Shown: positions 1,478-29,865, counted from the stretch's first letter. The stretch: DNA of 64,000 nucleotides from Candidatus Pacearchaeota archaeon (GCA_019659125.1 JAIFVX010000001.1:118097-182096), one strand, 5' to 3'. Numbers and translations are program-made. The notes: generated from the sequence alone by a model not told the origin.

Positions 1478-2158
1478 TTAACACGTAGCAGATCCACCAG
1501 GGCAGCTTGGACTCTTCAGGCAAGGACCGTATCCTGTGCAATCATTCCTACAGACATAGCTTCCCCACGATCCGTCGGGCAACGTGCATGAACTTGCACT
1601 AGTGCTGTCGCAATATTCTCCATTCTCAAGAACTCCGTTCGGGCACATAGATCCTCCCGACGCCGATACTGCGGCTCGAGAAGGCTCAGCGCGATTGATA
1701 CGATAGTCATTAGCAATCTTTCCTATCTTTTGTGAGCTTCCCTGTTTTGCACTGCCGCTTACTAAAGGTCGTACGGTTATCTTTGTAATATTTCCTAACT
1801 TTGTTGATGCTGTACTCCAGTTAATGTAGATGGCTCTTCTTTGGAATTCAGCAAGAGGAGCATTGGGATAATTGAAGCTCGCTGCATTTCCATTGCCGTC
1901 TTCAAGAGTAACTATCAATCCAGAAACATCTCCCGCCCCATTATTTCGTTTGACAACAAACCCCAAGGAGGTACTCGTATAATTTACAGCAACTGATTCT
2001 GGAACAACGGACAATGAAGTTGATAATGATGATGTCTCAATGTTTTGTCCAGCATTGACAAGAGTAGGCCGTACAAATTTCCAGACAATGACGATAGCGG
2101 CAAGTACGAGGAGGATCATCAGTACAGTAGTGACGACATCGCTAAGCCCTCGTTTCAT
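1478..2158 (-). CDS. archaeal type IV pilin-like protein (class III signal peptide) with Cys-rich C-terminal domain
   Basis: N-terminus MKRGLSDVVTTVLMILLVLAAIVIVW has a basic residue-Gly cleavage motif followed by a hydrophobic helix, as in archaeal pilins and archaellins. The C-terminal ~55 aa contain 10 Cys. Confidence 0.6.
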   Translation of the reverse strand: MKRGLSDVVTTVLMILLVLAAIVIVWKFVRPTLVNAGQNIETSSLSTSLSVVPESVAVNYTSTSLGFVVKRNNGAGDVSGLIVTLEDGNGNAASFNYPNAPLAEFQRRAIYINWSTASTKLGNITKITVRPLVSGSAKQGSSQKIGKIANDYRINRAEPSRAAVSASGGSMCPNGVLENGEYCDSTSASSCTLPDGSWGSYVCRNDCTGYGPCLKSPSCPGGSATC

Positions 2159-4035: not shown

Positions 4036-4617
4036 ATGGAACTTGACCTGACTTTATTGATGTGGATCGTCGCAGGAGTTGTCGTGCTTCTATGCCTTGT
4101 TCTTATTCTCATTCAGAGACGAATGAGCCCTCCAGACCAGCCTCTGGTTGATAAAAGTATGATCTTCAGGAAAGAAATAGAAGCTATTCAAGCATCACAA
4201 AAACCTCAAGAGATGATTAATCTTTTCAATAAATTAGTGCAGGAATATCTAAAAGAAACCTATAACGTACAAACAAATGATTATGCCGAGCTCTCGCATA
4301 TTCTCTATAACCGAGAAAATCATAGCCTTTCTGATTTTTGCAAAAAAATGATACGTGCATTGTATTCAGGAGAGGAATTGCAACGAGAACAGGTTGAAGC
4401 ACTTATGCAAGAGTTTCTCGCAATCATCAATGGGAATGAGAAACCGGCGCAGTCCACTGTTGTGCAAAAACAACCAGTTGCTCAAGATGCTAAGAAAACA
4501 CCGGAAACTAAAGAGCCTCCGGGACATGGCCCTATTGAAAGTATTGATATGCTTGAAAGAATTGAAAGCAAGATCCCTAGTAAGCTTCCTGTTAACGCAG
4601 CGCATCACTTAATCTAA
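4036..4617 (+). CDS. hypothetical single-pass membrane protein
   Basis: N-terminal TM (LMWIVAGVVVLLCLVLILI) followed by a helical, charged C-terminal region. Convergent with the vWA gene. Confidence 0.45.
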   Translation: MELDLTLLMWIVAGVVVLLCLVLILIQRRMSPPDQPLVDKSMIFRKEIEAIQASQKPQEMINLFNKLVQEYLKETYNVQTNDYAELSHILYNRENHSLSDFCKKMIRALYSGEELQREQVEALMQEFLAIINGNEKPAQSTVVQKQPVAQDAKKTPETKEPPGHGPIESIDMLERIESKIPSKLPVNAAHHLI

Positions 4618-5534
4618 GGAAATACTCTATAACGCGTATTGAACAGCAAATATTCAAATATAAAGATGAGAAGTGCTGCAAGAGCACAATATCCTGACGC
4701 ATCCAGAGAAACTCGCCGTACCTTTAAATTCTTTATCTGATCAAGAGATTGTGCAAGCACTGCAGCAGACTCTGCATGGAATGCTTTTCCCCCTGTCAAA
4801 AATGAGATTGACTCGAGCGAATCAAGCTCTACTTTTGAGATTCCATAGGTAGTTTCCCCTCCCGTTTCAGTCCCGAGCGCAATGGTATGGACAAGCACTG
4901 AATTCTTTGTTGCATAATCAATAGCCTCCTGAATATTACCTACATTGAATCTTCCATCGCTCAATAAAATAATTGCCCGATAATCCTCGGGCCGCAATAG
5001 ATTGACCGCGGTAACAATCGCCTCGTATAAGTCAGTTCCGCCAATAGAACTTAATTGAACATTCCCCAGTGACTGACGAAGAAGGTCTTTATTGCTTGTT
5101 ATGTCCTGCTCAATAAGAGTGGATCCTGAAAATGAAACAATTCCTACCCTCGTTCCTGCAGGATATGATCCAATAAATGACGAAAGACTTGTCTTAGCAG
5201 CCTCAAATCGACTAGGAAGGATATCATTTGCTTCCATACTTCGTGAGGAGTCAACTGCAATAACTAACGATGAAGAGCTTGTAAGGGCATCGTATTGGAC
5301 GATAGTACCTGCAATTGATAGAACAAGAAAGAGACAGATAGAAATGCTACATGAAAGGATAACAATATTCTTCGAATATAAGTCTATTCCCTTGATGCGG
5401 GCAATAGCATCAAAATTAGAGAACTGCAAGGCAGTCTTCCTCTTGCTCTTGATGGATATAAAATGGATGAGGATAATAACTGGTATAAAGAAAAGGAATA
5501 AAAGATTGAGAGGATGTGTAAAAGTGACAATCAT
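4614..5534 (-). CDS. membrane-anchored von Willebrand factor A protein (BatA-like)
   Basis: N-terminal TMs, then a MIDAS-type VIAVDSSRSM (DxSxS) and ILLSDG, then a C-terminal TM. Its start overlaps the DUF58 stop. Confidence 0.85.
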   Translation of the reverse strand: MIVTFTHPLNLLFLFFIPVIILIHFISIKSKRKTALQFSNFDAIARIKGIDLYSKNIVILSCSISICLFLVLSIAGTIVQYDALTSSSSLVIAVDSSRSMEANDILPSRFEAAKTSLSSFIGSYPAGTRVGIVSFSGSTLIEQDITSNKDLLRQSLGNVQLSSIGGTDLYEAIVTAVNLLRPEDYRAIILLSDGRFNVGNIQEAIDYATKNSVLVHTIALGTETGGETTYGISKVELDSLESISFLTGGKAFHAESAAVLAQSLDQIKNLKVRRVSLDASGYCALAALLIFIFEYLLFNTRYRVFP

Positions 5535-6430
5535 AGGAAGACAGGGCTCCTCTTGTCCCGAGCTCTCGCATTGAGGAATTCAGCAAGTGGGGGAACAAAT
5601 GATGACGCCGTACTTAATTCAAGCACATCGATGTCAGCTTTCTGGAAACTGTCTTTGACAAATTTCTCCTGTTCAGCAGCATAATGATGATAGGCATTCT
5701 TAGCCTCTGAAGGATCAATTAACATCTGATATCCTGATTGAGGGTCTTCAATGACAAACTCTCCTGATATAGGGGGAAGTTCCTTGTCTCGAGGGTCCTT
5801 GACCATCATGGCAACAGTCTCAAACTTGCTCCCTACAAACTTCAGCAAATTAACATCCCTTTCCTTAAGCCGTATAAAATCTGAAATGATGAAGACTGCA
5901 CTGACGGATGTATCGACAGAGTCAACAAGATAGGAAAGGATCTTGCCCATGTCGCATCCTCCTCCATACACGGAGGGATTTGAAACTGCATCCACAAAAA
6001 GATCAAGCTGACTCATTCCCTTAGCAGGTGACAAGACGTGAGATACCTTATCGTTGAAAAGAATAAGTCCCAGTCTATCATCCGAATTGAGAATAAGATT
6101 GCCCAGGGCGGAAGCAAGTTCCGCACTATATTCACACTTCAATTTTTCAGTCGATCCAAAGATCATATGTTCTCCTACGTCAATGACGAACATCACTCCT
6201 ATGTTCTTTTCTTCCTTGTATTGTTTTACCAGCAGCTTGTTAGTCCGTGTGCTCGCCTTCCAGTCAATGATTGCTGCATCATCTCCTGGAGAATATATTC
6301 GGTAACTGTCAAATTCCAAACCCTTTCCCCGTAAAATAGTGTGATAAAGCTTAGTATGCAGTTCCAATTCACGAACCGAGGCCTGAAGCTCAGCAACTCT
6401 ACTTGGAATATCAAGATTAAGCTTCCCCAT
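5531..6430 (-). CDS. DUF58 domain protein (MoxR-associated)
   Basis: GKGLEFDSYRIYSPGDDAAIIDWKASTRTNKLLVKQYKEEKN is the hallmark DUF58 block. Its start overlaps the MoxR stop. Confidence 0.85.
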   Translation of the reverse strand: MGKLNLDIPSRVAELQASVRELELHTKLYHTILRGKGLEFDSYRIYSPGDDAAIIDWKASTRTNKLLVKQYKEEKNIGVMFVIDVGEHMIFGSTEKLKCEYSAELASALGNLILNSDDRLGLILFNDKVSHVLSPAKGMSQLDLFVDAVSNPSVYGGGCDMGKILSYLVDSVDTSVSAVFIISDFIRLKERDVNLLKFVGSKFETVAMMVKDPRDKELPPISGEFVIEDPQSGYQMLIDPSEAKNAYHHYAAEQEKFVKDSFQKADIDVLELSTASSFVPPLAEFLNARARDKRSPVFL

Positions 6431-7419
6431 TATGGAACCTCAACAGTAGCGAGAAGATCATGGATGATAGCATCAGTAGTGACTCCTTCGGCATGTGCCC
6501 GATATGACAAGATCAGTCTATGTCGCAAGGCATCATAAGCAACAGTCTTGACATCCTGGGGCGTAACATAATTTCGCCCACGCAAAAGCGCTTCAGCCTT
6601 GGAGCCAATGTACAAAGCAATGGTCGCTCGAGGGGATGCCCCCAGTTGGATATACTGCCCATGATGGAAATCCTTCTTTCTTGTCATGGAAACAAGAGCG
6701 AGAATATATTTCTTGACCTTTTCATCAAGATAGATCTGATGTGTCAACGCTTGCATCTGCACGATCATCTTAGGCGTGATAATCGGCTTGATGGCAAATT
6801 CCTCAAACCTCTTAAAGGTAGCATTCTCTTCCATAATCATGGCTTCATGCTCCTCATCAGGATATCCTAACATTACTTTGAATAAGAATCTGTCCAATTG
6901 CGCTTCAGGAAGTGAATAGACTCCTTCATGTTCTAAAGGATTCTGGTTTGCCATAACGAAGAAAGGAGCAGGCAAGGGGAATGTCTCAGTCCCAATCGTC
7001 ACTTGCTTCTCCTGCATGGCTTCAATAAGCGCTGACTGTGTCTTAGGAGGGCTTCTATTGATTTCATCAGCAATGATGAACTGGGCAAAGATAGGTCCTT
7101 TCACTACCTCGAATCCTTTCCGAGGATCGTAGGTCGTAAGGCCAACAATGTCCGTAGGTAGCAAATCTACCGTAAATTGAATTCTCTTTGACGTGCACCC
7201 TGATACTCGTGCAAGTGTCTTGATAAGAAGTGTCTTTGCAATACCCGGAACTCCTTCAATGAGGACATGCCCATCGCATAACATTGCCCGAAGTAAGGAA
7301 TCTACTGTATCACTATGCCCGAAGAATACTTTGGATACTTCCTCTCGCACACGGGCAAGTACTTTGGAAAGCTCGTCCACTTGAGCACTGCTGAGCTTGA
7401 CTGTAGAATCACGATTCAT
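6430..7419 (-). CDS. MoxR-family AAA+ ATPase
   Basis: Walker A GVPGIAKT, Walker B IIADEINR, and the LGASPRA segment typical of the MoxR/AAA_3 family. Confidence 0.9.
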   Translation of the reverse strand: MNRDSTVKLSSAQVDELSKVLARVREEVSKVFFGHSDTVDSLLRAMLCDGHVLIEGVPGIAKTLLIKTLARVSGCTSKRIQFTVDLLPTDIVGLTTYDPRKGFEVVKGPIFAQFIIADEINRSPPKTQSALIEAMQEKQVTIGTETFPLPAPFFVMANQNPLEHEGVYSLPEAQLDRFLFKVMLGYPDEEHEAMIMEENATFKRFEEFAIKPIITPKMIVQMQALTHQIYLDEKVKKYILALVSMTRKKDFHHGQYIQLGASPRATIALYIGSKAEALLRGRNYVTPQDVKTVAYDALRHRLILSYRAHAEGVTTDAIIHDLLATVEVP

Positions 7420-7450
7420 CTCTTTTCTTGTCCCTCAAGGGTGATGAGCA

Positions 7451-10234
7451 TTATAAACCTTTCTCACTGCTATCCGCGAATTGCTGGAATTTCCTGAATC
7501 TCCATCGCTGGTAGAAATAGAACCCTGCTCCAATCACCAGTGTGCCCATAACTGCTCCTCCAACCCATACGAAAAAGGCATTCTGGGACAGGATACTCTT
7601 TCCCGTAATGTTAGATCTCTGGGAGATAGCCCTCTTGCATGACTCGACAGCTTCATCCAGCTTCGCATCACCTTCCTCAGACTTTCCCTGTGCAATGAGA
7701 CTCTTAGCCTCATCAAGAGTTTCCTTGATCTCCAGACACTCAGGGTTCTGAGCGATCAATGCATCCGTAAGGAGCACTTTATCTTGGATCTTTGTCCCCT
7801 GACCTACAGTAAGCAATATCTTGCCTGAGTCCTGATAAGCAGGATTCTGTACCGTAGCATTCAGAAGGATCTCGTATACACCATCCTCTTCCGTATTGAC
7901 ATCTACGATCAATGTAATATTTTTAGAGGCACCGATAGGAAGAATATTCAAGAATGAATTATCGAATGAGGCAAGCAAATCCTTCCGTAAAGCACCATCC
8001 TTAGATACGGTAGCCCTCACTACAATACCTCGAAGGTCAAGTGCCCCTCTATTAGCCAAAGTAATGGGAAGGATAATCTTCTTGTTCTTCTCAGTTGATA
8101 AAGGATTAGGAAGCAGCAGTTTCAAAAGAATAGGAGTTGATTTAGCAAAATCTCCCGATCCTCCGCCGCCTCCACTATTAGGAATTGGTACATTAGGATC
8201 AGTCGATATAACACCTACTCTGTAGTTGCTCCAGCCAGTTACATTAAAAATGACAGTACCTGCATTCAGGGAAGTAAAGTTATAGCAATAAGTAGCGTTA
8301 CAAGCAATATTATTCTTGAATATCAAAGGAGCGTCAAAGTTTGTAGGGAGGCCATAAAACGTTACATTAGCACTTTGGTTAAGACCCAAGCGATTATCAT
8401 TAACTGTGACCTTATCATTTTCTATCTTTATATCATCAGTTAAGTTATCTGCGCTCTCATTAATTGGCTGCAAAAACCTGATTTCCCCATACTGCGTGTT
8501 CTTGAAATTAACAAATCCCCCAACTCCAGAAAACGAATAACTTTCTACATAACCATCAGTAATAGATAACTGATTAGAAGAATTTAAGTTTAAAACCTGT
8601 AGAGCAGTATCAAAACCCTCATTCCCGCCGATAATCGTGTTATTAAACAGAATATTTCCAGAGGTGTTATTAAGATAAACTCCACCTTCCGAATTATTGG
8701 TTATTATGGAGGAGCTAAGAGTGATATTGGAACTATCTTCTATATAAAAACCAAGATGTTCCAAATTACTGATGAACATAGAGGAAAAATTATTGTTATT
8801 AGAATTATCGATGACAAGCACACCAAAGGTGTTGCGTCCAGCTGTAGTAATACTGCAATTCTGAATGCGATTGTTACCGCTACCTGAAAGTTCAAAACTT
8901 CCCATGCCATCAGAATAGGAACCGATACTTCTACCAGATCCTTCTCCACTTGAACCGATAGTACAATGGGCAATAGTGTTGTTAGAGCTACCTTGCAAAT
9001 AAATGGGGGGATATGCCGTTGTATCTCCAAAATCAGCAGTCACATACTGAAAGACATTGTTTTTACTGTTGACAACGCTTAAGCCTGCTCCAACCTGAAG
9101 AGACGCAACTGTCAAAGAAGTAAATGTATTATTGTCGCTTGAATCGAGATTAACTCTTCCCAAGCTTAGATTAGTAAAGCTATTATTATATTGATTAGTT
9201 AGATCTAAATTTCCATCCGATATTACAGAAATAACTCGGTTATGATTGCCAGTAACAGATAAAAGAGAACTACCTTGCTCTCTAATAAGTGTATCAAGGA
9301 GATTATTAGAGTCAAGAGAAACATACCCGGAAATGTTATAGAGATTATTATTAGATCCTACATTCATTCCGGGACTACTAACTGTAAGGTTGATCATTGT
9401 ATCGTTGATGTTAAAGAAATCAGTAGAAAATGCGAGGTTAGCTATCGTTAAATCTGTAAAATTATTGTTATGACCACTATCGTTAATGTCATTGATAACT
9501 AGAAACTTAGCAAAGATATTATAAGCACTTGCCGAATCGAGAATGATAGAATCTAGAGAACTAGGAGAAAGAATATCGCCAGTGTTATTAGCATCACGAT
9601 TAGTAAAGAAATTATTGGAACTAGAGATCAGTGATATAAGAGGTGACTGCATTGAAGAAAAATTATTTTGGGTGCTTGAATTCAATAAAATTTTTCCAGC
9701 AGAAGAAGTAGTTATATTATACATAGTATTATTATGGCTCCCTAAGAAATAAAAACTATAATTGTCTTGACTCGCATTAATTTTAAGAAATGTGATATTC
9801 GAACTATTTTGGATATAAATGCCGTAACCAGTTTTATTGACAGTGATATTGATAATGCGGGAATTAGTTACATTAAGGAGATTAAGGCCATAACCGGTTG
9901 TAAGAGCCATACTTAGATTACAATTCCTGATGGTAACATTATTAGCATGAGTCACATTGATGGCAGGTCTATTAAGAGTACTGTTAGCGATGATGAAAGA
10001 CCGACAGTTCAATTCAACATTCGAGGCATTAATAAGAAAACATCCTGTAGAATTGACAAGAGACCGGTTAAGGTTCTGCGTCATTGTATAGTTGCCTGCC
10101 GTATCTAACGTCTGACAGGTTGAAACGTCTCCTGGAGTCGAAGCGCTTACCAATGAAAAAGTATCCAACAATAAGAGTACTGCTAATATCCCTGCCAGTA
10201 TCCAAAATAAAAGAAAAATATTCTTAGACGTCAC
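7451..10234 (-). CDS. membrane-anchored surface protein 1: signal peptide, long right-handed beta-helix (PbH1/NosD-like) region, two beta-sandwich-like modules, Cys-bracketed helical hairpin, C-terminal TM
   Basis: 927 aa with a GTG start. Has a signal peptide, many repeats of the type NNVTIRNC/SNITF.., a GGGGGSG linker, a CARDB-like block PITLANRGALDLRGIVVRATV..ITLIVDVNTEEDGVYEILLNATV, then TM and YQRWRF. Very dense in N-x-S/T sequons. Confidence 0.75.
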   Translation of the reverse strand: MTSKNIFLLFWILAGILAVLLLLDTFSLVSASTPGDVSTCQTLDTAGNYTMTQNLNRSLVNSTGCFLINASNVELNCRSFIIANSTLNRPAINVTHANNVTIRNCNLSMALTTGYGLNLLNVTNSRIINITVNKTGYGIYIQNSSNITFLKINASQDNYSFYFLGSHNNTMYNITTSSAGKILLNSSTQNNFSSMQSPLISLISSSNNFFTNRDANNTGDILSPSSLDSIILDSASAYNIFAKFLVINDINDSGHNNNFTDLTIANLAFSTDFFNINDTMINLTVSSPGMNVGSNNNLYNISGYVSLDSNNLLDTLIREQGSSLLSVTGNHNRVISVISDGNLDLTNQYNNSFTNLSLGRVNLDSSDNNTFTSLTVASLQVGAGLSVVNSKNNVFQYVTADFGDTTAYPPIYLQGSSNNTIAHCTIGSSGEGSGRSIGSYSDGMGSFELSGSGNNRIQNCSITTAGRNTFGVLVIDNSNNNNFSSMFISNLEHLGFYIEDSSNITLSSSIITNNSEGGVYLNNTSGNILFNNTIIGGNEGFDTALQVLNLNSSNQLSITDGYVESYSFSGVGGFVNFKNTQYGEIRFLQPINESADNLTDDIKIENDKVTVNDNRLGLNQSANVTFYGLPTNFDAPLIFKNNIACNATYCYNFTSLNAGTVIFNVTGWSNYRVGVISTDPNVPIPNSGGGGGSGDFAKSTPILLKLLLPNPLSTEKNKKIILPITLANRGALDLRGIVVRATVSKDGALRKDLLASFDNSFLNILPIGASKNITLIVDVNTEEDGVYEILLNATVQNPAYQDSGKILLTVGQGTKIQDKVLLTDALIAQNPECLEIKETLDEAKSLIAQGKSEEGDAKLDEAVESCKRAISQRSNITGKSILSQNAFFVWVGGAVMGTLVIGAGFYFYQRWRFRKFQQFADSSEKGL

Positions 10235-10345
10235 CGTAGTTCACGCTCTTTTCCATGATAGAGGTTAGAGAAAAAAGAACTTTATAAGGATTCCGAGAGG
10301 CTAGAAACTAGCAAAGATTATAGTTAATTCCAAGCACTGGCCAGC
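10228..10345. repeat. 118-bp perfect direct repeat, copy 1 (partner 14090-14207)
   Basis: Base-for-base identical to 14090-14207 by hand alignment. Covers the last 12 codons and stop of the dockerin-like gene, the whole 73-nt spacer, and the first codons of the anchored gene. Confidence 0.9.
10280..10287 (-). promoter_or_regulatory. TATA box (TTATAAAG) inside the 118-bp repeat, upstream of anchored gene 1
   Basis: Plus-strand ctttataa. 23 nt lie between the box and the minus-strand ATG at 10256 (mini-ORF). This matches the spacing seen at other leaderless genes in the window. Confidence 0.55.
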
Positions 10346-12002
10346 CGTCTGAGCACTGAGTAACTGAAGTCATGATATTGCCTGAACCTGAGTTAGAATT
10401 ACTACCAAAAGTACATAAGAAGTCTTGAAGATTCGAACAGAATTTGTTATTGTTAACAGAATTTCCTCCACCTGATTCAAGCTGAAGACCTCTATAACCA
10501 TTCTTACTTCCACTGTTACCAGTTATGGTGTTTGTATTAGAGATTATATAAAATCCAGTTTGGTTGTTATTAGTAGCATTATTATTCAAAAGAGAGTTTC
10601 CAGGAGAGGCATAATCGACATAAAATCCTTCGACATTATTGTCATTTGCAGTATTAGAAATAAGATTGTTGTTAGCAGAAGGGGTCGGATCACTAGGGGA
10701 ATATAATTGTAACACAAATCCTCCAACATTGTAGATAATGCTTGATCCAGCATTCCTATTAGCGGTGTTACCTCGAAGGGTATTAGAACTGCTTCCTCGA
10801 AGAAAGAATCCATCAATACGATTGCTGTTGGCAGTTGAGTTGATAATACTATTACCATTACTCTTCTCAAGCAAGAATCCATTCTCACCATTGTTGTTTG
10901 CTGTGGAATTTATAACTTGGTTATTAGAGCTGGTAGAGATAAAGTAAAACCCATTCTTACCATTGTTGTTTGCAAAGTTGTTTCTAAAAATGCTGTTAGA
11001 GACTTTTCCTGATAAAGCGACGCCATACAAAGAGTTACTGTTTACAGTATTGCTGGTAACGGTGGTGTTTGTATTCCAGACGAGACCAATACCTGTTCCC
11101 TTGTTGTTATTAATAACATTGTTGCTCACAACAGTATGATTTCCTCGAACGGATATTCCTTGGTCGTTATTGCTTAAGACGTTGTTAAGAACTTGAGTAT
11201 AGTGAGAATTAGAATCTATACCTACTGCATTGGCCCCATTATTGTTGTTTATATTATTGTTATTAAGTATGGCTTTAGAGGATTGTTGAAGAATTACTCC
11301 AGATCCGCTTCTTGTGAGAGTGTTACCAGATATAAAGGAGTTTTGAGCATTATCAAATTGGATGGCTCCATTGATCATGGAATCGATAACACAGTTCCTA
11401 ACGGTGGCATTCATCACATTTGAAGCAACAACTCCAAAATTATTGCTAGCTCCATTAAATGCACCATTTCGTATAGCATGATTCTGACAGTCAAGCTCGA
11501 CATTTGATGCACTGATTACCATACAAGGACTAGTTGCTGGATCTATATCAGCAGTCAATAGGTATTTAGTGTCGGGTTGATTAAGAGCTGAACATGAAGA
11601 AACAAGTACAACTGCCTGTCCTGCAAGTGCTGAGCCTGTGCATCCAACTGTGTTGAACGCGGCAGCGAGATCAATGAAATCAGATATGCTGGTAGTTCCA
11701 TCCCTGTTGATATCAGTATTGGCACACCAGTTATTTGTTGTGCCGCATCCAACTTCATTAAAGTGAGAACTTACCTCGATATAGTCAGCAATACTGACAG
11801 TTCCATCGTGATTGATGTCAGTGTTATTGCACCAGTTGTCCTTCGTTACAGAAGATTGAATAGTGGAGTCTGTCGCTGATTCAGATTTCTTAGAATTTTT
11901 TGCAGTAGAAATAGCAGTTACGCTTAGGAGCATAACAGCGACTAAGAATATTGATAGCATGAATTTCAGCGCGTTCTTCATAGGAAAATAGTAGAACATC
12001 AA
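10308..12002 (-). CDS. secreted dockerin-like + beta-helix protein 1
   Basis: Signal peptide (likely true start MKNALKF), two segments WCNNTDINHDGTVSIADYIEVSSHFNEVGC and WCANTDINRDGTTSISDFIDLAAAFNTVGC (D-x-N-x-D-G Ca-loop), NosD-like NN.I.NN repeats, and a Cys-rich tail ending WPVLGINYNLC. Confidence 0.75.
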   Translation of the reverse strand: MMFYYFPMKNALKFMLSIFLVAVMLLSVTAISTAKNSKKSESATDSTIQSSVTKDNWCNNTDINHDGTVSIADYIEVSSHFNEVGCGTTNNWCANTDINRDGTTSISDFIDLAAAFNTVGCTGSALAGQAVVLVSSCSALNQPDTKYLLTADIDPATSPCMVISASNVELDCQNHAIRNGAFNGASNNFGVVASNVMNATVRNCVIDSMINGAIQFDNAQNSFISGNTLTRSGSGVILQQSSKAILNNNNINNNNGANAVGIDSNSHYTQVLNNVLSNNDQGISVRGNHTVVSNNVINNNKGTGIGLVWNTNTTVTSNTVNSNSLYGVALSGKVSNSIFRNNFANNNGKNGFYFISTSSNNQVINSTANNNGENGFLLEKSNGNSIINSTANSNRIDGFFLRGSSSNTLRGNTANRNAGSSIIYNVGGFVLQLYSPSDPTPSANNNLISNTANDNNVEGFYVDYASPGNSLLNNNATNNNQTGFYIISNTNTITGNSGSKNGYRGLQLESGGGNSVNNNKFCSNLQDFLCTFGSNSNSGSGNIMTSVTQCSDGWPVLGINYNLC

Positions 12003-12038
12003 TATATAAATGTTTCTGTGACCACTAAGTAATGAAAA

Positions 12039-14096
12039 CTAAGACTCAATTGCCTTTTGGAATCGCCAACGCTGATAGCTATAGAAGCCAATACCTACCA
12101 CAAATGCTCCGAGAATGGCCACTCCAACCCATATAAAGAAAGTACTAGGAGTGAAAGAATTTCTTCGCTGGCTGCTTACCTTTTGGGAAATTGAGTTCTT
12201 GCATCCTTGAATTGCCTCATCAAGTTTCGCCTGCCCTTGCTGCTCTTTTCCATCGGAAAGTAGTTGTTGGGCCTCATCAAGCGTTTCCTTGATCTCTAAG
12301 CACTCATGATTATTGGCAATCAGCTGTGCAGCAAGAAGCACTTTAGCTTGTGTTTGTGTCCCTTGCCCTACTGTTAAAAATATCTTAGCAAAATCCTGAT
12401 AGAATGGATCCCTGACGCTAGCATTGAGCAGGATTTCATAAACACCTTCCTCTTCAGTATTAACATCAACGGTCAAAGTAATGTTCTGTGACTTTCCTAT
12501 AGGCAATATATCTATTGATGATGTGTCAAACGAGGTAACTAAATCCTTTCGTAAAGCCCCATTTTTAGCGACGGCTGCCTTGACGACGATGCCATTGAGT
12601 GCCACTGATCCTTTATTCTCAAGTCGAATTGGTAGTACTAGTCTGCCATTCTTTGCAGATGAAACAGGGTCAGGAAGCAGTAATTTCAGCAATACGGGCC
12701 GTATTATCAATGATCCTCCGCCACTTCCTCCACCAGAGCTTCCAGGTAGAGTGAGCAAAGAAACAACACTCACCCTATAGGAACCATATCCTGTAATATT
12801 AAAGCTGACATTACCTACATTCAACGAAGTAGAATTAAAGCACCCTTGAGCTGTTCCGCAAGCGATATCATTCTTGAATATCAAAGGATTATCAAAATTA
12901 GTGGCAAGGTTATAAAGAGAGATATTCGCGGTTCTATTGAAACGTAGATCACTTATGATCGTAATCTTATTACTCTCAATCTTAACATCATTGCTTAAGT
13001 TTGTTCCCGAGCCATTGATCGTCTGTAAAAACCTCACCGATCCATACTTAGAATTTATGAATCTTGCAATAACTTCTCCTAAGAATCTATAATCTGCCAC
13101 TAAGCTATCAGTAACGTTTATACTAAGAGGGCTAAAAGAAATATTATTGTCAAAAATATATGTATAATTGGACCATCTTAAATGTAGCCCTGAACCTGAA
13201 ATATTGATAATAGAATTGTTAGATATGGTAGTATTAACACTTTTTTCAACATAGATACCTGCTTCCGTGCCGTTGTATATAAAATTGTTAAAAACAGTCA
13301 TATTATTACCTGTTAAAAAAACCCCTCGCAAAAAACTATTATTAATAAAGTTATTAGCCAAATAAGCATTATTAGCGCTGGATACAAGAATACCCATACG
13401 TTGCGAAACAACAGTATTATCGTAAATAGTAGTGTTAATACCGTAATCGTTTCCTCCAACAACAATAGCATCACCAAACGTAGTATTCTTAACAGTATTA
13501 TGAGATATAATTATGTTGTTACAGGTATCTACACTCACGCCATTAAATAATGATCCAATGATGATGTTGCCAAGAATAGTTATATTACTACCATCAATGA
13601 CAGAAATTCCATTAAAGGTGTGATTGAAAAAAACATTGTTACTAATAGTAACATTGTTAGAAGACGTAATTACAACTCCATTACTATTAGATGAGAACGT
13701 ATTGTTTGTTATAAGTGTATTATTGTCAGAACTAATTTGGAGGGCAGTAGTTGAACTTCCCAGAGTGATATTGCAGTTTCGTACGGTAAGATTAGTAATT
13801 TCATCTCCAATTATCGCAGGCTGAGGATTTGCATTCGTAGTATTATAAATGGAAAATCCCTTACAATTTAACTCTACGTTAGAAGCACTAACCAAAAAAC
13901 AAGAGCCAGATATTTCATCATCAAACACAGTAAGGCTTTTGTTCATAGTATAAACTCCTGATATGTTAAGCTCCTGGCAAAACGAAACATTTCCAGGAAC
14001 AGAAGCACTAACAAGAGATAAAGTATCGAAAGAAAACACTACTACAAATACTCCTATCAATACTAAAAACAAGAGAAATATGTTCCTAAACGTCAC
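12039..14096 (-). CDS. membrane-anchored surface protein 2 (paralog of 7451-10234)
   Basis: 685 aa with a GTG start and the same architecture. The N-terminus MTFRNIFLLF.. and the C-terminal ~330 aa align with paralog 1. The beta-helix core is shorter and diverged. Confidence 0.75.
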   Translation of the reverse strand: MTFRNIFLLFLVLIGVFVVVFSFDTLSLVSASVPGNVSFCQELNISGVYTMNKSLTVFDDEISGSCFLVSASNVELNCKGFSIYNTTNANPQPAIIGDEITNLTVRNCNITLGSSTTALQISSDNNTLITNNTFSSNSNGVVITSSNNVTISNNVFFNHTFNGISVIDGSNITILGNIIIGSLFNGVSVDTCNNIIISHNTVKNTTFGDAIVVGGNDYGINTTIYDNTVVSQRMGILVSSANNAYLANNFINNSFLRGVFLTGNNMTVFNNFIYNGTEAGIYVEKSVNTTISNNSIINISGSGLHLRWSNYTYIFDNNISFSPLSINVTDSLVADYRFLGEVIARFINSKYGSVRFLQTINGSGTNLSNDVKIESNKITIISDLRFNRTANISLYNLATNFDNPLIFKNDIACGTAQGCFNSTSLNVGNVSFNITGYGSYRVSVVSLLTLPGSSGGGSGGGSLIIRPVLLKLLLPDPVSSAKNGRLVLPIRLENKGSVALNGIVVKAAVAKNGALRKDLVTSFDTSSIDILPIGKSQNITLTVDVNTEEEGVYEILLNASVRDPFYQDFAKIFLTVGQGTQTQAKVLLAAQLIANNHECLEIKETLDEAQQLLSDGKEQQGQAKLDEAIQGCKNSISQKVSSQRRNSFTPSTFFIWVGVAILGAFVVGIGFYSYQRWRFQKAIES

Positions 14097-14207
14097 CGTA
14101 GTTCACGCTCTTTTCCATGATAGAGGTTAGAGAAAAAAGAACTTTATAAGGATTCCGAGAGGCTAGAAACTAGCAAAGATTATAGTTAATTCCAAGCACT
14201 GGCCAGC
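14090..14207. repeat. 118-bp perfect direct repeat, copy 2
   Basis: Identical to 10228-10345. Confidence 0.9.
14142..14149 (-). promoter_or_regulatory. TATA box (TTATAAAG) inside repeat copy 2, upstream of anchored gene 2
   Basis: Same sequence and spacing as 10280-10287. Confidence 0.55.
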
Positions 14208-15423
14208 TTTCTGTTGAACATAAAGTAACTGTAGTCATTTTATTTCCAGTTCCAGACGTTCCTAGAGAAGAGAAAAAGCATATATAATCATCACCAGTAG
14301 GGGAACAAATCTTATTATTAGAAACCACATTGTTAACGACCCGTGCAACCTGGAATCCTCGAATCCAACTATTAGTAATATTATTGTCTGAAAATGTATT
14401 GTAAGAGGAGCCCTGAGTTACAATCCCGTATCGATCATTATTCAAAGAATTACTCTTAATGGTGTTATAGCTAATGTCGTTGATAGACATACCTACAGCT
14501 CCATTATTGATAACATTGTTGGAAATAGTACTGTTCGTAAGATTGGTAACGCTTAATCCGATCCAATCCAAATTTAATAAATTATTAACAACGGTGAGGT
14601 TATTGGCAGGGTAGACGGGACCACCCTCTTCTTCAGTATACGAGATGGATATAGCTTGAGAATTATTAAGAAGAACATTCTTTGCTATGATGGTGTTTGA
14701 AGTTCCCATGACCTGAATTCCTTCAACATTGTTAAAAATAGTATTATTGATGACAATTGAATTGTCTGCACCATAAAGGCTGATTGCCCGATGAGTTCCA
14801 CCAACACCATATTCGATATCGTTTACGGAAGAAAGCTTACAGTTTCGAATAACTGTATGAGGTGAACCAGAAGTGATAAGATCATAGGCATGCGGTAAAT
14901 CATTGACAATACTGTGTCCCTGGCAGTCAATCTCTACATCGTGAACATCAACAATAAGACAATACTCACCATCTAAAGGCTGGGAAACATCAGATGTTAG
15001 AACATATTTTGTATTGGACTGCTCAAGACGCATACATGAAGAGATAGGAACAATTGATTGGCTTGAAACCGGCGCTTGGCAGCCAACCTTGTTAAAGTTA
15101 GCTGATACGTCAATGAAGTCACTAATGCTAGTCGTGCCGTCATGGTTAATGTCCGTGTTAGAGCACCAATCGTTTCCAATACTGCATCCAACTTCATTAA
15201 AGTGAGAACTTACCTCGATATAGTCGGCAATACTGACAGTACCATCGTGATTGATGTCAGTGTTATTGCACCAGTTATCGACGCTCGTGGCACTAATAGC
15301 GACAGAGGTCGTTGATGCAGTTTTCTTAGAGGATTTAGCAGTTGAGAGAGCAGTTACAGAAAGTAATAAAGCAGCAACTAGAAATACTGATAGAATAACT
15401 TTCATCGTGCTTTTCATACGCAT
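14170..15423 (-). CDS. secreted dockerin-like + beta-helix protein 2 (paralog of 10308-12002)
   Basis: 417 aa. Has a signal peptide, the same two Cys-bracketed NTDINHDGT.SI.D.I motifs, a shorter beta-helix and an identical WPVLGINYNLC end. Confidence 0.75.
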   Translation of the reverse strand: MRMKSTMKVILSVFLVAALLLSVTALSTAKSSKKTASTTSVAISATSVDNWCNNTDINHDGTVSIADYIEVSSHFNEVGCSIGNDWCSNTDINHDGTTSISDFIDVSANFNKVGCQAPVSSQSIVPISSCMRLEQSNTKYVLTSDVSQPLDGEYCLIVDVHDVEIDCQGHSIVNDLPHAYDLITSGSPHTVIRNCKLSSVNDIEYGVGGTHRAISLYGADNSIVINNTIFNNVEGIQVMGTSNTIIAKNVLLNNSQAISISYTEEEGGPVYPANNLTVVNNLLNLDWIGLSVTNLTNSTISNNVINNGAVGMSINDISYNTIKSNSLNNDRYGIVTQGSSYNTFSDNNITNSWIRGFQVARVVNNVVSNNKICSPTGDDYICFFSSLGTSGTGNKMTTVTLCSTESWPVLGINYNLC

Positions 15424-15493
15424 TTATTAAAAACTCAATATATAAATGTTTCCGTAACCACTAGAAAAGAGAAACAGTATTACGCCGTAGTAA

Positions 15494-16417
15494 CTAAAGA
15501 AGCTTGCGTTTGCTGAGATGCTTGAGTTCGAACTCATAGTCATGGAGCAATCCCTTTGTTGCTGCCTTTTCTTCATCAGAGAGTTTCGAGAAAAGAGAGA
15601 CAGCACGTTCGTGGATTGCATTGGCCTTGGGAATATTATATCTCAAAAGAGCCCGTTCTCCCTTGTTGAGCAGGGCCTTTAGCCTCCATATCTTATATCC
15701 TGATGAAGTCCTAAGAAGGGTAATAAGGATAGGTAATGACAATATCCATAAGATAGTGCTAAAATACGTTACAAGAGGTGAATGGGGGGATTTGCATGAG
15801 GCGCAGGAAGGACCGCAATCAATGCCTTCTTCATTGTCGTCTTGAATACCATTAGCACACGAAGGGCAATACGACGTTTCACCCTGGACAAAACTAAGCT
15901 CTAATTGTTTCCCGTATCTCCACGCAGCAAGATTAATCCTTGTTACGGGCTTGCTATATGTGGGATCAACGAGCGTCAAAAACTTCTCGCCGCAATGATC
16001 TGCTGTGATAAACTTTACGGGAAAGGTATCCTTACATGAGTGCTCTTCCGTAAAAGGAGCTGTGCAATTATTATAGTCTATGCATGGTCTCTCTTGATAT
16101 CCTTCAAATCTGATATTGCTCTCAAAGATATCAGAGGTTTTAGCGGTAAAGACGCATGAATTCCATGCGCCACATTGGATGTTTGGAGTGCATGAGGAAG
16201 ATACGCAGAGTTTCCTCTCAGTAATATCCTCGGTGCCACACGCTATATCCTTGCAAACCCGTGTTGTAAAATCATCAACACACGAACTCCACTCAGTACA
16301 ATCATACCGTGGATTGCACTCAATAGCCCTTCCTGTCGTCGATTTATTTGTCAACGCTGATGATAATGATATAAAAAGAAGTACAAAGACGAAAGCAATC
16401 ACCACTTTTTTGAGCAT
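15494..16417 (-). CDS. Cys-rich repeat surface protein with C-terminal TM and cytoplasmic tail
   Basis: Signal peptide, then repeats such as CNPRYDCTEWSSCVDDFTTRVCKDIACG and CTPNIQCGAWNSCV, a TM (ILWILSLPILITLL) and a ~70-aa helical tail. Confidence 0.6.
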   Translation of the reverse strand: MLKKVVIAFVFVLLFISLSSALTNKSTTGRAIECNPRYDCTEWSSCVDDFTTRVCKDIACGTEDITERKLCVSSSCTPNIQCGAWNSCVFTAKTSDIFESNIRFEGYQERPCIDYNNCTAPFTEEHSCKDTFPVKFITADHCGEKFLTLVDPTYSKPVTRINLAAWRYGKQLELSFVQGETSYCPSCANGIQDDNEEGIDCGPSCASCKSPHSPLVTYFSTILWILSLPILITLLRTSSGYKIWRLKALLNKGERALLRYNIPKANAIHERAVSLFSKLSDEEKAATKGLLHDYEFELKHLSKRKLL

Positions 16418-16451: not shown

Positions 16452-16862
16452 TTACAATTTCCAAAAAGAGGATTTCTGTGTCGGCGGCAAAGCCTGTTGC
16501 TTACGTTGGACAAACTCCCTATGGAAAACATCAATGTTTTCCTCGCACACATAATCATGCTGCCTGAACCCTCCACCAAAAGTCTTAGGGATATGCATGA
16601 GCTCGTGGATGATAACTTTATCCTGGTCAACTTTGCTCATACGATCAAATCGCTCGAGAAACTCTATGGCGTAAAATGCCCTGACACCCATGGCTCTCTG
16701 CATCAACTTTCCCATGGTATGACATCGGGCAATGGTTCTTTTCGTTGAAGATCCAAAACTGCGAAGGCACTTGACTCGTGAAAGATCAATATGTAGCATG
16801 CCTAAAGTCTTCACTATATCAATCGTTCGTTCTTGTAAATCTGGGGCTTCTTCATATTTCAT
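16452..16862 (-). CDS. predicted Zn-metallopeptidase (HExxH)
   Basis: 136 aa with VIIHELMHIPKTFGGGFRQH. Resembles the small archaeal predicted metallopeptidases (COG4900-like). Confidence 0.55.
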   Translation of the reverse strand: MKYEEAPDLQERTIDIVKTLGMLHIDLSRVKCLRSFGSSTKRTIARCHTMGKLMQRAMGVRAFYAIEFLERFDRMSKVDQDKVIIHELMHIPKTFGGGFRQHDYVCEENIDVFHREFVQRKQQALPPTQKSSFWKL

Positions 16863-19852: not shown

Positions 19853-19975
19853 GATCCCATAGCTCAGCCTGGTTTAGAGCACCGCTCTTATAAGAGCTCG
19901 GCCCGCAAGGACCGTGATTTCATGCTGAAAAGCTAAGAAAGGCGGGGGTCCGGAGTTCAAATCTCCGTGGGATCA
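19853..19975 (+). tRNA. intron-containing tRNA, apparent anticodon UAU (Ile)
   Basis: Hand fold: acceptor GATCCCA/TGGGATC with discriminator A, D arm GCTC-AGCCTGGTTTA-GAGC, anticodon stem CCGCT/GGCGG, loop CTTATA|A, T arm CGGAG-TTCAAAT-CTCCG. 47 extra nt sit after position 37. CTTA can pair with intron TAAG, leaving 3-nt aaa and taa bulges (BHB-like). Confidence 0.8.
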
Positions 19976-28230: not shown

Positions 28231-29865
28231 ATGAGAAAAGGGGCTGTGTTGGTGATAGGATTGATGATAGTAGGGGTCTTGTTGTTCTTTAAGCCACACA
28301 TAACGGGAAGTGTTATTCTAAGTCCTACTGTGCCGACCGATTGCTCTCTAGCAAACATACAAACAGTGTGGGATACACTGTTCAAAGAATCAAGTTCGGG
28401 AATTGTTGCATTTAATGCAAGTATTGTAAGTGGAAAATGTTCTGATTACATGGCATACAAGATTGTAGGTGAAAAGACCTATGTTCTCCTTGGCTCTGAG
28501 CCTGCAGGAACTCCAAGAATCCTCTATGGATTCTACGGCGATGCAATGGCAAATTATACTGACATTCTTAAAAATGTTACCAGCATCAGCAACAAATCAT
28601 TAGTATGGGGAATGAGTCTTGATGGGATGATGAAAAGAAGGAGTGCTGCTATAACATCAACTGACGCAGACACGGAATTCAATGTAGTCTACAAGCAAAC
28701 TCCTGGAAGCTGGTCTCTCTATCAAGGGTCTACCACACTTGCTTATATCTTCAAGTATAATGAAATCTCATCTACGAAAAATCAAACAGTTTCAGCATCT
28801 GTTGACGCTAATTATACCTATCACACCCTATCAATTACTGAAGAATCTCTTTGTACTCCTTCATGGGTACAATTGAATACCTCGTGCAGGAGCGATGAGA
28901 CTCTCATTGCATGGTATAATGATACAAGCTCATGTAGCATGCAAACAGGAAAACCTGCAAATGTGACTCTTGATTGCGACTATAACAATGACAGCATGAT
29001 AGGAAACACAACAGCAATCCAAGGGAATGTGAATCTAAGCATGTATGTAAATGGTGCTCTGTTCTCATTCTCGTCATCACAGCAAGGAACTAAATTAATA
29101 GAGCTCAGAGATGGATTAATCCCACGAGTATTGTGGAACTACAGTTTTTCCACGCCATTGAATCTTCGTTCAGTCACTATCAAAAAGCAGACATCAGGGG
29201 CACGAGGATATGTTATTGTTAATGGCATAAGCGCACAGAAGATTATAGTAGTTGACAAGCTCAATGCATCAAGCCAAAACGTTTGTATAAAAAACAAAGA
29301 AATCAGCAACATTTCTGAAGTATCATCGGACTGCAGCAAAAGCGATGAGACAAAAGTAAGCTGTCCAGGAACTTCTTCACCTTATTCATGCACAATCATT
29401 AATGGTACATTTGTCGTGTCTGGACTTTCAAACTCAGCCGTTGAGGAATACTTTGATTCCCAGATTCCTGTTGGCTGTAGAGTCAACTGGACGTGTTCTC
29501 CCTGGGCGCCATGCATTGATGGCACACAGAAACGAGCGTGCGTTGACAAATCTAGTTGCGGAACAAATATCTCCAGACCAGCCGAGCAGCAAGCATGCAG
29601 TGCAGCCTGCGTTCCCGAATATACAAACTGCGAGCAATGGCCCGATATATGTCCTGCAAGCGGAAAGAAAACACGACTCTGTATCGATGCGAAGAATTGC
29701 GGTGGGCCTTCTAAGGAAGAGACCCAGGATTGCCAATACAAAAACGTCAAAAGAACACAGATCATCATTTCAATATTAGTCGGTGCAGCGGCGATCACAG
29801 GAGGACTGGTGATCTATCTCATGACTCGAAAAGGAGTCGAAACACAACAGACGATTCAATACTAA
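28231..29865 (+). CDS. sequon-rich surface protein with Cys-rich TSP1-like repeats and C-terminal TM
   Basis: N-terminal TM/signal, many N-x-S/T sequons, C-terminal repeats CRVNWTCSPWAPCIDGTQKRACVDKSSCG and CVPEYTNCEQWPDICPASGKKTRLCIDAKNCG, then TM IISILVGAAAITGGLVIYL. Confidence 0.6.
   Translation: MRKGAVLVIGLMIVGVLLFFKPHITGSVILSPTVPTDCSLANIQTVWDTLFKESSSGIVAFNASIVSGKCSDYMAYKIVGEKTYVLLGSEPAGTPRILYGFYGDAMANYTDILKNVTSISNKSLVWGMSLDGMMKRRSAAITSTDADTEFNVVYKQTPGSWSLYQGSTTLAYIFKYNEISSTKNQTVSASVDANYTYHTLSITEESLCTPSWVQLNTSCRSDETLIAWYNDTSSCSMQTGKPANVTLDCDYNNDSMIGNTTAIQGNVNLSMYVNGALFSFSSSQQGTKLIELRDGLIPRVLWNYSFSTPLNLRSVTIKKQTSGARGYVIVNGISAQKIIVVDKLNASSQNVCIKNKEISNISEVSSDCSKSDETKVSCPGTSSPYSCTIINGTFVVSGLSNSAVEEYFDSQIPVGCRVNWTCSPWAPCIDGTQKRACVDKSSCGTNISRPAEQQACSAACVPEYTNCEQWPDICPASGKKTRLCIDAKNCGGPSKEETQDCQYKNVKRTQIIISILVGAAAITGGLVIYLMTRKGVETQQTIQY

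Follow-up and report, generated by a model that had tools for sequence, protein, structure and literature searches.

We analysed a 64,000-nt stretch of the genome of a Candidatus Pacearchaeota archaeon (hereafter the window; all coordinates count from its first letter), in which a run of predicted envelope genes leads into a set encoding a MoxR-type AAA+ ATPase, a DUF58 protein and a membrane protein with a von Willebrand factor A (vWA) domain. Few prokaryotic operons of unknown function are as widespread as these MoxR-DUF58-vWA (Bat-type) sets, whose clients are, to our knowledge, mostly unknown. Further, DPANN archaea depend on surface contacts with their hosts, and their envelope proteins are almost unannotated. 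We found that the MoxR set tracks a C-terminal membrane-anchor unit of the surface protein encoded upstream of it, and not the beta-helix, the immunoglobulin (Ig)-like module 1 or the dockerin-like module encoded in the same cluster.

Open reading frame (ORF) calls gave eight minus-strand genes running from position 16417 down to 4614 (Table 1). They encode a Cys-rich transmembrane protein (CysTM), two pairs of a secreted and a membrane-anchored protein (SecA and AncA, SecB and AncB), and the MoxR, DUF58 and vWA proteins. AncB and MoxR are separated by 31 nt, MoxR and DUF58 overlap by 1 nt, and DUF58 and the vWA gene overlap by 4 nt. Eight same-strand genes with these gaps and overlaps had been described from the DNA without database searches (the sequence-only reading), and all coordinates and the three spacings were reproduced. 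The convergent gene beside the vWA gene is conserved along with the cluster and is its ninth member. The start of SecB is most likely the ATG at 11981, which gives 557 aa, compared with 564 aa from the TTG; the NCBI product (P0002) has 557 aa and starts at this ATG, and a TATA-like box sits just upstream of it.

Table 1. Genes and sequence features of the envelope cluster, with their positions in the window and the basis of assignment.
Feature	Position	Strand	Description
CysTM	15494..16417	-	Signal peptide, Cys-rich ectodomain (18 Cys), transmembrane helix at aa 214-237, helical cytoplasmic tail; from hydropathy and Cys count
SecA	14170..15423	-	417 aa; signal peptide, dockerin-like pair, PbH1/NosD beta-helix, Cys-rich C-terminal cap ending WPVLGINYNLC
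SecA dockerin-like module	15073..15285	-	aa 47-117; two Cys-bracketed Ca-loop and helix segments, WCxNTDINHDGxxSIxD...GC
Exact 118-nt repeat, copy 2	14090..14207	-	End of SecA and start of AncA
AncA	12039..14096	-	685 aa; signal peptide, beta-helix, module 1, Gly/Ser linker, module 2, helical bundle, transmembrane helix, YQRWRF tail
AncA module 1	12762..13061	-	aa 346-445; Ig-like beta-sandwich after the beta-helix (AlphaFold model; profile matches to positions 1-98)
AncA anchor unit	12075..12689	-	aa 470-674; CARDB-like module 2, helical bundle bracketed by Cys599...Cys632 with NPxCxExxE, transmembrane helix
SecB	10308..12002	-	564 aa from TTG, more likely 557 aa from ATG; SecA-like architecture with a longer beta-helix
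SecB dockerin-like module	11634..11846	-	Pfam Dockerin_1, 26.6 bits; sequence matches in the PDB
Exact 118-nt repeat, copy 1	10228..10345	-	Last 38 nt of SecB, 73-nt intergenic region with TATA-like CTTATAAAG, first 7 nt of AncB
AncB	7451..10234	-	927 aa; AncA paralogue with a longer beta-helix; conserved C-terminal region aa 577-925 (nt 7460-8506)
MoxR-type AAA+ ATPase	6430..7419	-	Pfam AAA_3 2.4e-57, AAA_lid_2 2e-21; Walker A GVPGIAKT, Walker B IIADE
DUF58 protein	5531..6430	-	vWA-like, no transmembrane helix; Pfam DUF58 3.2e-38; start overlaps the MoxR stop
BatA-type membrane vWA protein (TM-vWA)	4614..5534	-	Pfam VWA_2 5e-19, BatA 25.9 bits; NCBIfam BatA 9e-23
Convergent transmembrane protein	4036..4617	+	193 aa, single-pass; weakly DUF4381-like (Pfam 9e-4, below threshold); beside the vWA gene

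Pfam NosD/Beta_helix models matched all four large proteins, SecA, SecB, AncA and AncB, as the sequence-only reading had led us to expect. For SecA and SecB, identity was 48% across roughly the first 250 residues and 49% across the last 79; for AncA and AncB, it was 44% across roughly the first 150 residues and 51% across roughly the last 430. The beta-helix cores could not be aligned, either between SecA and SecB or between AncA and AncB. The earlier description of paralogues with conserved ends and divergent cores was thus borne out.

To describe the conserved end of the anchored proteins, the last 340 residues of AncA were modelled by AlphaFold from a 32-sequence alignment. The model (mean predicted local distance difference test score, pLDDT, 86.4) comprised module 1, a disordered Gly/Ser linker, module 2, three helices and a transmembrane helix. 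Thus, the modules, linker and transmembrane helix proposed in the sequence-only reading were recovered in that order, but what had been taken for a helical hairpin was predicted as three helices. A Foldseek search of the PDB with the C-terminal model returned generic Ig-like folds, including PapD-like/ASH domains and complement MG domains. Module 2 superposed on the CARDB structure of PF1109 (3idu/2kl6) with a TM-score of 0.70-0.72, and Pfam gave no match to CARDB (PF07705) at E<=0.1. No Pfam or NCBIfam model matched the C-terminal region, and a PDB sequence search with it was empty.

The anchor profile (A1) was used in an exhaustive HMMER search of 1.84 billion representative proteins, which returned at least 1,572 representatives at E<=1e-3, 249 of them at E<=1e-30. 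The anchor unit thus defines a family of this size that has no Pfam or NCBIfam model. Word-index searches gave one match for the anchor profile and one for the dockerin profile, and an early view of the anchor family as very rare was overturned by the exhaustive search. The portion common to most matches consisted of module 2, the helices and the transmembrane helix, and 127 of 132 anchor domains ended no more than 40 aa from the C-terminus. Across 131 sequences, the near-invariant residues were N494, G496, P564, D568, the motif N-P-x-C599-x-E-x-x-E and C632, and the family also has the transmembrane helix and a Y-x-x-x-R tail. The ectodomains that precede the anchor are mutually unrelated (Big_9/cadherin-like, He_PIG, FG-GAP and beta-helix). 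Within the window, the profile matched only AncA and AncB. Giant Pacearchaeota beta-helix proteins without the anchor contain as many as six copies of module 1. P0052 (L006), P0120 and P0104 each have a complete internal anchor unit in addition to the complete one at the C-terminus; these proteins may be fused tandem genes or gene-calling artefacts.

The downstream genes could be assigned to known families. The MoxR protein had the AAA_3 core, Walker A and B motifs and an AAA_lid_2 match (2.2e-21), and the DUF58 match (PF01882) covered profile positions 1-214 of 216. The vWA protein reached the Pfam BatA threshold of 25.9 bits exactly and had a metal ion-dependent adhesion site (MIDAS) of sequence DSSRS and three transmembrane segments; its NCBIfam BatA match lay below the equivalog cut-off. 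Two transmembrane helices precede its vWA domain, in which the MIDAS is intact, and one follows it. From the K/R-rich loop between the first and second helices, we infer that the vWA domain faces outward. MoxR and DUF58 had zero transmembrane segments by hydropathy.

We then compared the locus of the sister genome (L001) and seven further members of the family (L003, L004/5, L006, L007/8, L012, L013 and L014). In 8/8 loci, an anchor-bearing gene lay directly upstream of MoxR-DUF58-vWA on the same strand, and the MoxR orthologues were 54-83% identical across related loci. Homologues of the convergent transmembrane protein occurred in L001, L003, L007, L013 and L014 and, weakly, in L012. This adjacency could be merely an inherited gene order, kept without any functional link because the genomes are small and rearrange slowly, and the window, L001 and L007/8 do share a wider synteny (TsaD, L7Ae and S28e). 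We consider this explanation quite unlikely, however, because the adjacency is kept with different flanks in L004, L006, L012 and L014 (ribosomal genes in L006; LamG and glycosyltransferase genes in L012 and L014), and it outlasts the insertion of Peptidase_S51 in L004 and of Fic in L014 as well as the exchange of the whole ectodomain. Further, the metagenome contig L013 (1-5766) has the order DUF58, vWA and convergent transmembrane gene, anchor protein and the start of another MoxR; this apparent tandem of two MoxR-type gene sets also speaks against mere inheritance.

As a single negative control, the Pacearchaeota protein P0007, from a metagenome-assembled genome (MAG), contains beta-helices and module 1 in six copies but lacks the anchor, and no MoxR gene was found within 10 kb of it. 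Together with the adjacency in 8/8 loci, this control ties MoxR to the anchor and not to the dockerin cassettes. A tblastn search found no dockerin gene in seven of the eight related anchor-MoxR loci. The sequence-only reading had proposed that the surface cassettes are linked to MoxR-DUF58-vWA and, more narrowly, that a dockerin pair is. The link itself is conserved, but it follows the anchor, whatever the ectodomain, and the narrower proposal was abandoned.

A different role for the set, as a conflict or defence system like the MoxR-vWA systems of multicellular bacteria, would be consistent with a weak bpMoxR Pfam match (3.9e-10). However, PADLOC gave no defence-system match for any component, no effector, beta-propeller or NTPase-sensor partners were seen, and the partners of the set are envelope proteins. 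We rejected this role as extremely improbable.

No Pfam or NCBIfam family matched CysTM, the first gene of the cluster. In L001 and L004, the gene immediately before the anchor gene encodes a homologue of it (61% and 38% identity, respectively), and the anchor proteins of L012 and L014 contain a CysTM-like Cys-rich domain as an internal fusion. A 544-aa protein at 28231-29865 (+) has a signal peptide, 22 Cys, 18 N-x-S/T sequons and a C-terminal transmembrane helix, with no Pfam family, and its Cys-rich repeats resemble those of CysTM (BLASTP links via L001 and L004). Upstream, the cluster is adjoined by a gene for a 136-aa PhageMetallopep (PF18894) protein at 16452-16862 (-), which occupies the same position in the sister genome with 80% identity.

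The anchored and secreted proteins also differed in their content of N-x-S/T sequons. AncA had 31 sequons compared with an expectation of about 15, and AncB 47 compared with about 23, an enrichment of about twofold. The sequons were depleted in SecA (7 observed, about 11 expected) and SecB (8 observed, about 21 expected, among 103 Asn), although both proteins have a very high Asn content. This enrichment in the anchored and depletion in the secreted proteins suggests that the former may be heavily glycosylated coat components and that the latter may not be.

By sequence, the Cys-bracketed module of the secreted proteins is dockerin-like. SecA and SecB contain the Ca-loop segments TDINHDGTVSIAD and TDINHDGTTSISD, and the loop has Asp at position 12 in the fashion of dockerins. 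Pfam Dockerin_1 (PF00404) scored 26.6 bits for SecB, above the gathering threshold of 22.9, and 22.1 bits for SecA, just below it. A PDB sequence search with the SecB module returned EF-hand pairs (1e-4) and cellulosomal dockerins (1e-3 to 0.02). The SecA module matched the dockerin profile A3 at 1.8e-43, and within the window this profile matched only SecA and SecB. The AlphaFold model of the module, from a five-sequence alignment, was weak (pLDDT 60.2), with a helix right after each loop; its five best Foldseek matches in the PDB were dockerins of cohesin-dockerin complexes, at E values of 0.3-4 and TM-scores of 0.32-0.38 that are not significant. Thus, the proposal that these segments fit the dockerin/EF-hand pattern stands as a statement about sequence, with PF00404 above threshold for SecB only, but the model did not confirm the fold.

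A receptor of the classical kind was not seen. Cohesin (PF00963) had no match in the 15 window proteins scanned, which included every identified predicted extracellular protein, and cohesin was not among the 50 best Foldseek matches of the anchored C-terminal model. The earlier remark that no cohesin is recognisable here therefore agrees with both searches. Likewise, no scaffoldin with cohesins and a surface anchor, as in a cellulosome, was found among the window proteins.

Elsewhere, the dockerin module was found in only a handful of proteins. A scan of GTDB genomes found only the sister MAG. There, the gene upstream of the anchored protein in L001 encodes P0003, with an Anc-type N-terminus, a beta-helix and module 1, and this protein ends in a C-terminal dockerin pair at the place of the anchor. 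In the same genome, P0004 combines LamG, a polysaccharide deacetylase domain and the dockerin module; it is encoded on another contig, with no anchor or MoxR gene there. When metagenomes were scanned with the dockerin profile, three loci matched weakly and only L009 was informative: its protein is built like the Sec proteins, down to the Cys-rich cap at the C-terminus (C.DG[WF]P..G...C). These three occurrences fit a portable tethering tag able to replace a membrane anchor, and the dockerin-like module accordingly looks like a portable surface tether, which we propose as its candidate role.

The tag might instead serve a dedicated pairing, in which each secreted protein docks on the C-terminal modules of the anchored protein of its own cassette, these modules taking the place of a cohesin, and MoxR/vWA aids the assembly of two-component adhesins. 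The Sec and Anc genes occur in alternation, the pair having been duplicated together, the junction between the end of Sec and the start of Anc is identical over 118 nt, in L001, too, the gene for an anchored protein directly follows one for a dockerin protein, and the dockerin of P0003 occupies the anchor position. We nevertheless regard such pairing as rather unlikely. The conserved Anc modules are common to hundreds of proteins without a dockerin neighbour, including those of the seven other sampled loci, and this distribution indicates that they did not evolve as dedicated dockerin receptors. They are generic Ig-like and CARDB-like modules, with no cohesin among their 50 best Foldseek matches. 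Further, SecA and SecB agree at all of 32 aa in their first dockerin segments, which argues against specificity for one cassette, and the same dockerin occurs on the unlinked polysaccharide deacetylase.

It is also conceivable that the dockerin-like segments merely stabilise the proteins in a Ca2+-dependent manner and that the beta-helix proteins are carbohydrate-active enzymes or an S-layer-like coat. The NosD/Beta_helix matches and a weak similarity of the beta-helices to mannuronan C5-epimerases (E about 1e-3) are in keeping with this, as are the failure of the above searches to find a cohesin, the many non-cellulosomal dockerins that have no known partner (PMC9012536) and the similar pectin-lyase-like glycoproteins of Nanobdella. 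However, the module moves between N- and C-termini and between unrelated proteins, and it replaces the membrane anchor in P0003, which is the behaviour of a targeting tag; we therefore judge the stabiliser role unlikely. An enzyme assignment for the beta-helices was dropped, since the epimerase matches were weak.

The cassettes show traces of exchange at the DNA level. Their ends are 74-79% identical in DNA, and the exact 118-nt repeat is embedded there. In the first dockerin segment, SecA and SecB differ at 5 of 99 nt, and in the second there are many differences, synonymous ones included. This patchwork of near-identical patches points to gene conversion between old duplicates, and the 118-nt repeat is likely to have arisen by gene conversion or unequal crossing-over. 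Two other readings of this region were discarded: as a structured RNA, the repeat folded no better than shuffled controls (z = +1.28), and a 10-codon upstream ORF overlapping the Anc start was absent from L001.

Just upstream of SecA (15424-15493) and SecB (11982-12038) we noted a conserved promoter-like element, TAGTGGTYACRGAAACATTTATATATTGA, and a similar element lies upstream of the gene for P0003 in the sister genome (L001 6140-6195). The TATA box is close to the ATG, which suggests that the SecA and SecB mRNAs may be leaderless. The conserved TAGTGGTTAC part of the element could be a regulator site.

Taking these results together, we favour, at slightly better than an even chance, a lineage-specific envelope cluster of Pacearchaeota/DPANN archaea in which the anchor unit would be the client of the MoxR set, the dockerin-like module a tether and the beta-helices the working surfaces. 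Its conserved core consists of an often present Cys-rich transmembrane protein; a large, probably heavily N-glycosylated type-I surface protein defined by its C-terminal anchor unit; and, directly downstream, the MoxR AAA+ ATPase, DUF58, the BatA-type vWA protein and the convergent DUF4381-like transmembrane protein. The anchor unit itself comprises a CARDB-like Ig module, a disulfide-bracketed helical bundle with the invariant NPxCxExxE, a transmembrane helix and a short basic tail. Here, a beta-helix protein of the PbH1/NosD type fills the slot of the surface protein. Its gene underwent tandem duplication along with that of a secreted beta-helix paralogue, and this paralogue carries the Cys-bracketed, dockerin-like double Ca2+-loop module in place of a membrane anchor.

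In the mechanism that we propose for this cluster, cytoplasmic MoxR and DUF58 and the outward vWA/MIDAS protein would form a trans-membrane assembly or remodelling device, with the anchor unit as its client on the surface protein. The dockerin-like module would act as a portable, Ca2+-dependent tether that holds anchorless beta-helix proteins on a shared surface receptor. The variable, putatively glycan-directed beta-helices may be the working surfaces that bind or cut envelope glycans of a partner or host. Gene content, domain architecture, the size of the anchor family and its adjacency to MoxR are observed here, and the client relationship, the topology, the docking and the glycan target are inferences.

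Several points weigh against this proposal. The eight loci are phylogenetically related, and three of them share the flanks of the window, so that the independent observations number fewer than eight. MoxR and DUF58 are cytoplasmic, and almost the entire anchor unit, like the vWA domain, is predicted to lie outside the cell, so that the anchor unit could be a direct client only by way of a trans-membrane relay. The fold model of the dockerin is weak (pLDDT 60), and no cohesin-like receptor was found in the Pfam scan of 15 window proteins or the Foldseek top 50 of the Anc C-terminus. A glycan activity of the beta-helices is, further, a guess from weak sequence resemblance.

A more far-reaching version, which we offer tentatively as possible but doubtful, is that the anchor is the recognition handle of a new DPANN envelope-assembly machine. 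A MoxR-DUF58 motor in the cytoplasm and a BatA-type vWA/MIDAS protein on the outside, with small transmembrane partners, would install or remodel the principal surface glycoprotein, and in this organism they would also support a two-tier display of dockerin-tagged beta-helix proteins and enzymes for host contact. If this were true, it would be the first defined client for a Bat-type MoxR system. The strict pairing with one recognisable module of the main DPANN surface proteins gives a testable candidate for a MoxR client and points to envelope assembly. In addition, the Cys-bracketed dockerin-like tag suggests a second, non-covalent mode of decorating the DPANN surface.

Other features of the window were noted in passing. 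A giant protein of 2,681 aa at 31356-39401 (-), with Laminin_G_3, Big_7, Big_13, DUF4625 and Metallophos domains, is another large surface protein, in which neither the anchor unit nor the dockerin module was found. A 226-aa protein at 1478-2158 (-) has an N-terminus, MKRGLSDVVTTVLMILLVLAAIV, that resembles an archaeal type IV pilin signal and a Cys-rich C-terminus, with no Pfam match. A 986-aa AddA-like protein with UvrD-helicase and PD-(D/E)XK nuclease domains at 45313-48273 (-) is unrelated to the cluster. A tRNA gene of 123 nt at 19853-19975 (+) was found by Rfam and missed by ARAGORN; presumably it contains an intron, consistent with an archaeal genome.

We compared the cluster with known systems. 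A literature search that covered few subscription journals, and hence does not prove absence, found no paper tying surface proteins of DPANN archaea to MoxR. Two kinds of protein have been described from Nanobdella aerobiophila, a cultivated DPANN archaeon: pectin-lyase-like glycoproteins that contain Ig folds and, apart from these, S-layer-like proteins that have a transmembrane helix at the C-terminus (bioRxiv 10.1101/2023.10.27.564410). That description, by which alone the proteins were compared, has no MoxR linkage (no mention of AAA) and no dockerin-tagged paralogues.

Archaeal dockerins outside cellulose degradation are known from Archaeoglobus and ANME archaea (PMC9012536). The module described here shares with cohesin-dockerin systems the duplicated DxNxDGxxxxxD Ca-loop and helix, the PF00404 match, the location at either terminus and the occurrence on varied secreted proteins including an enzyme. 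It differs in its Cys-bracketed segments (WC...GC), in the absence of a detected cohesin or scaffoldin and in a fold left unconfirmed by the weak model.

Surface-protein genes beside MoxR-type ATPases have been reported in other settings. The PFNA cluster of Bifidobacterium has the order pkb2, fn3, AAA/MoxR, duf58 and tgm (PMC8430577), and thus likewise places the gene for an Ig-like (fibronectin type III) surface protein directly beside a MoxR-type AAA and DUF58. However, it is bacterial, it encodes a transglutaminase and a kinase where the present cluster has the BatA vWA protein, and its surface protein is unrelated. In archaea, a secretion/assembly system has been predicted around arCOG01314, with a MoxR/GvpN ATPase, vWA and Ig-like S-layer-type proteins (Makarova, Galperin & Koonin 2015; PMC5898192). 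Both systems combine an AAA+ ATPase of the MoxR/GvpN family and a vWA protein with membrane or secreted proteins of the Ig-like, S-layer type. Here, in contrast, the vWA protein is of the BatA type rather than Ig-vWA, DUF58 is present, and the surface protein bears the anchor unit; by Pfam, none of the cluster proteins has the arCOG01314 architecture of a membrane anchor and an extracellular flavodoxin-like domain. The present cluster is thus a different variant of this secretion/assembly theme.

A close parallel to the MoxR set itself is the Bat-type operon of Bacteroides, Leptospira and Borrelia. The three core families, their order and the overlapping genes are shared, as are the BatA-type N-terminal transmembrane region, the vWA domain with MIDAS and a weakly DUF4381-like neighbour. 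The function of the bacterial Bat proteins is reported to be still unclear (PMC3557215, PMC5700661). Unlike those operons, the set described here is archaeal, has a single vWA membrane gene and a convergent DUF4381-like gene, and lacks BatB, BatC (tetratricopeptide repeats), BatD and BatE. Beyond the vWA gene lie the convergent 193-aa transmembrane protein and then housekeeping genes, so that the operon is not a complete Bat operon. Judged by the families that it encodes, the MoxR-DUF58-BatA core is a reduced Bat-type operon. It also differs in that a large anchor-bearing surface protein, the candidate client, invariably precedes the set, whereas the bacterial Bat systems are without it.

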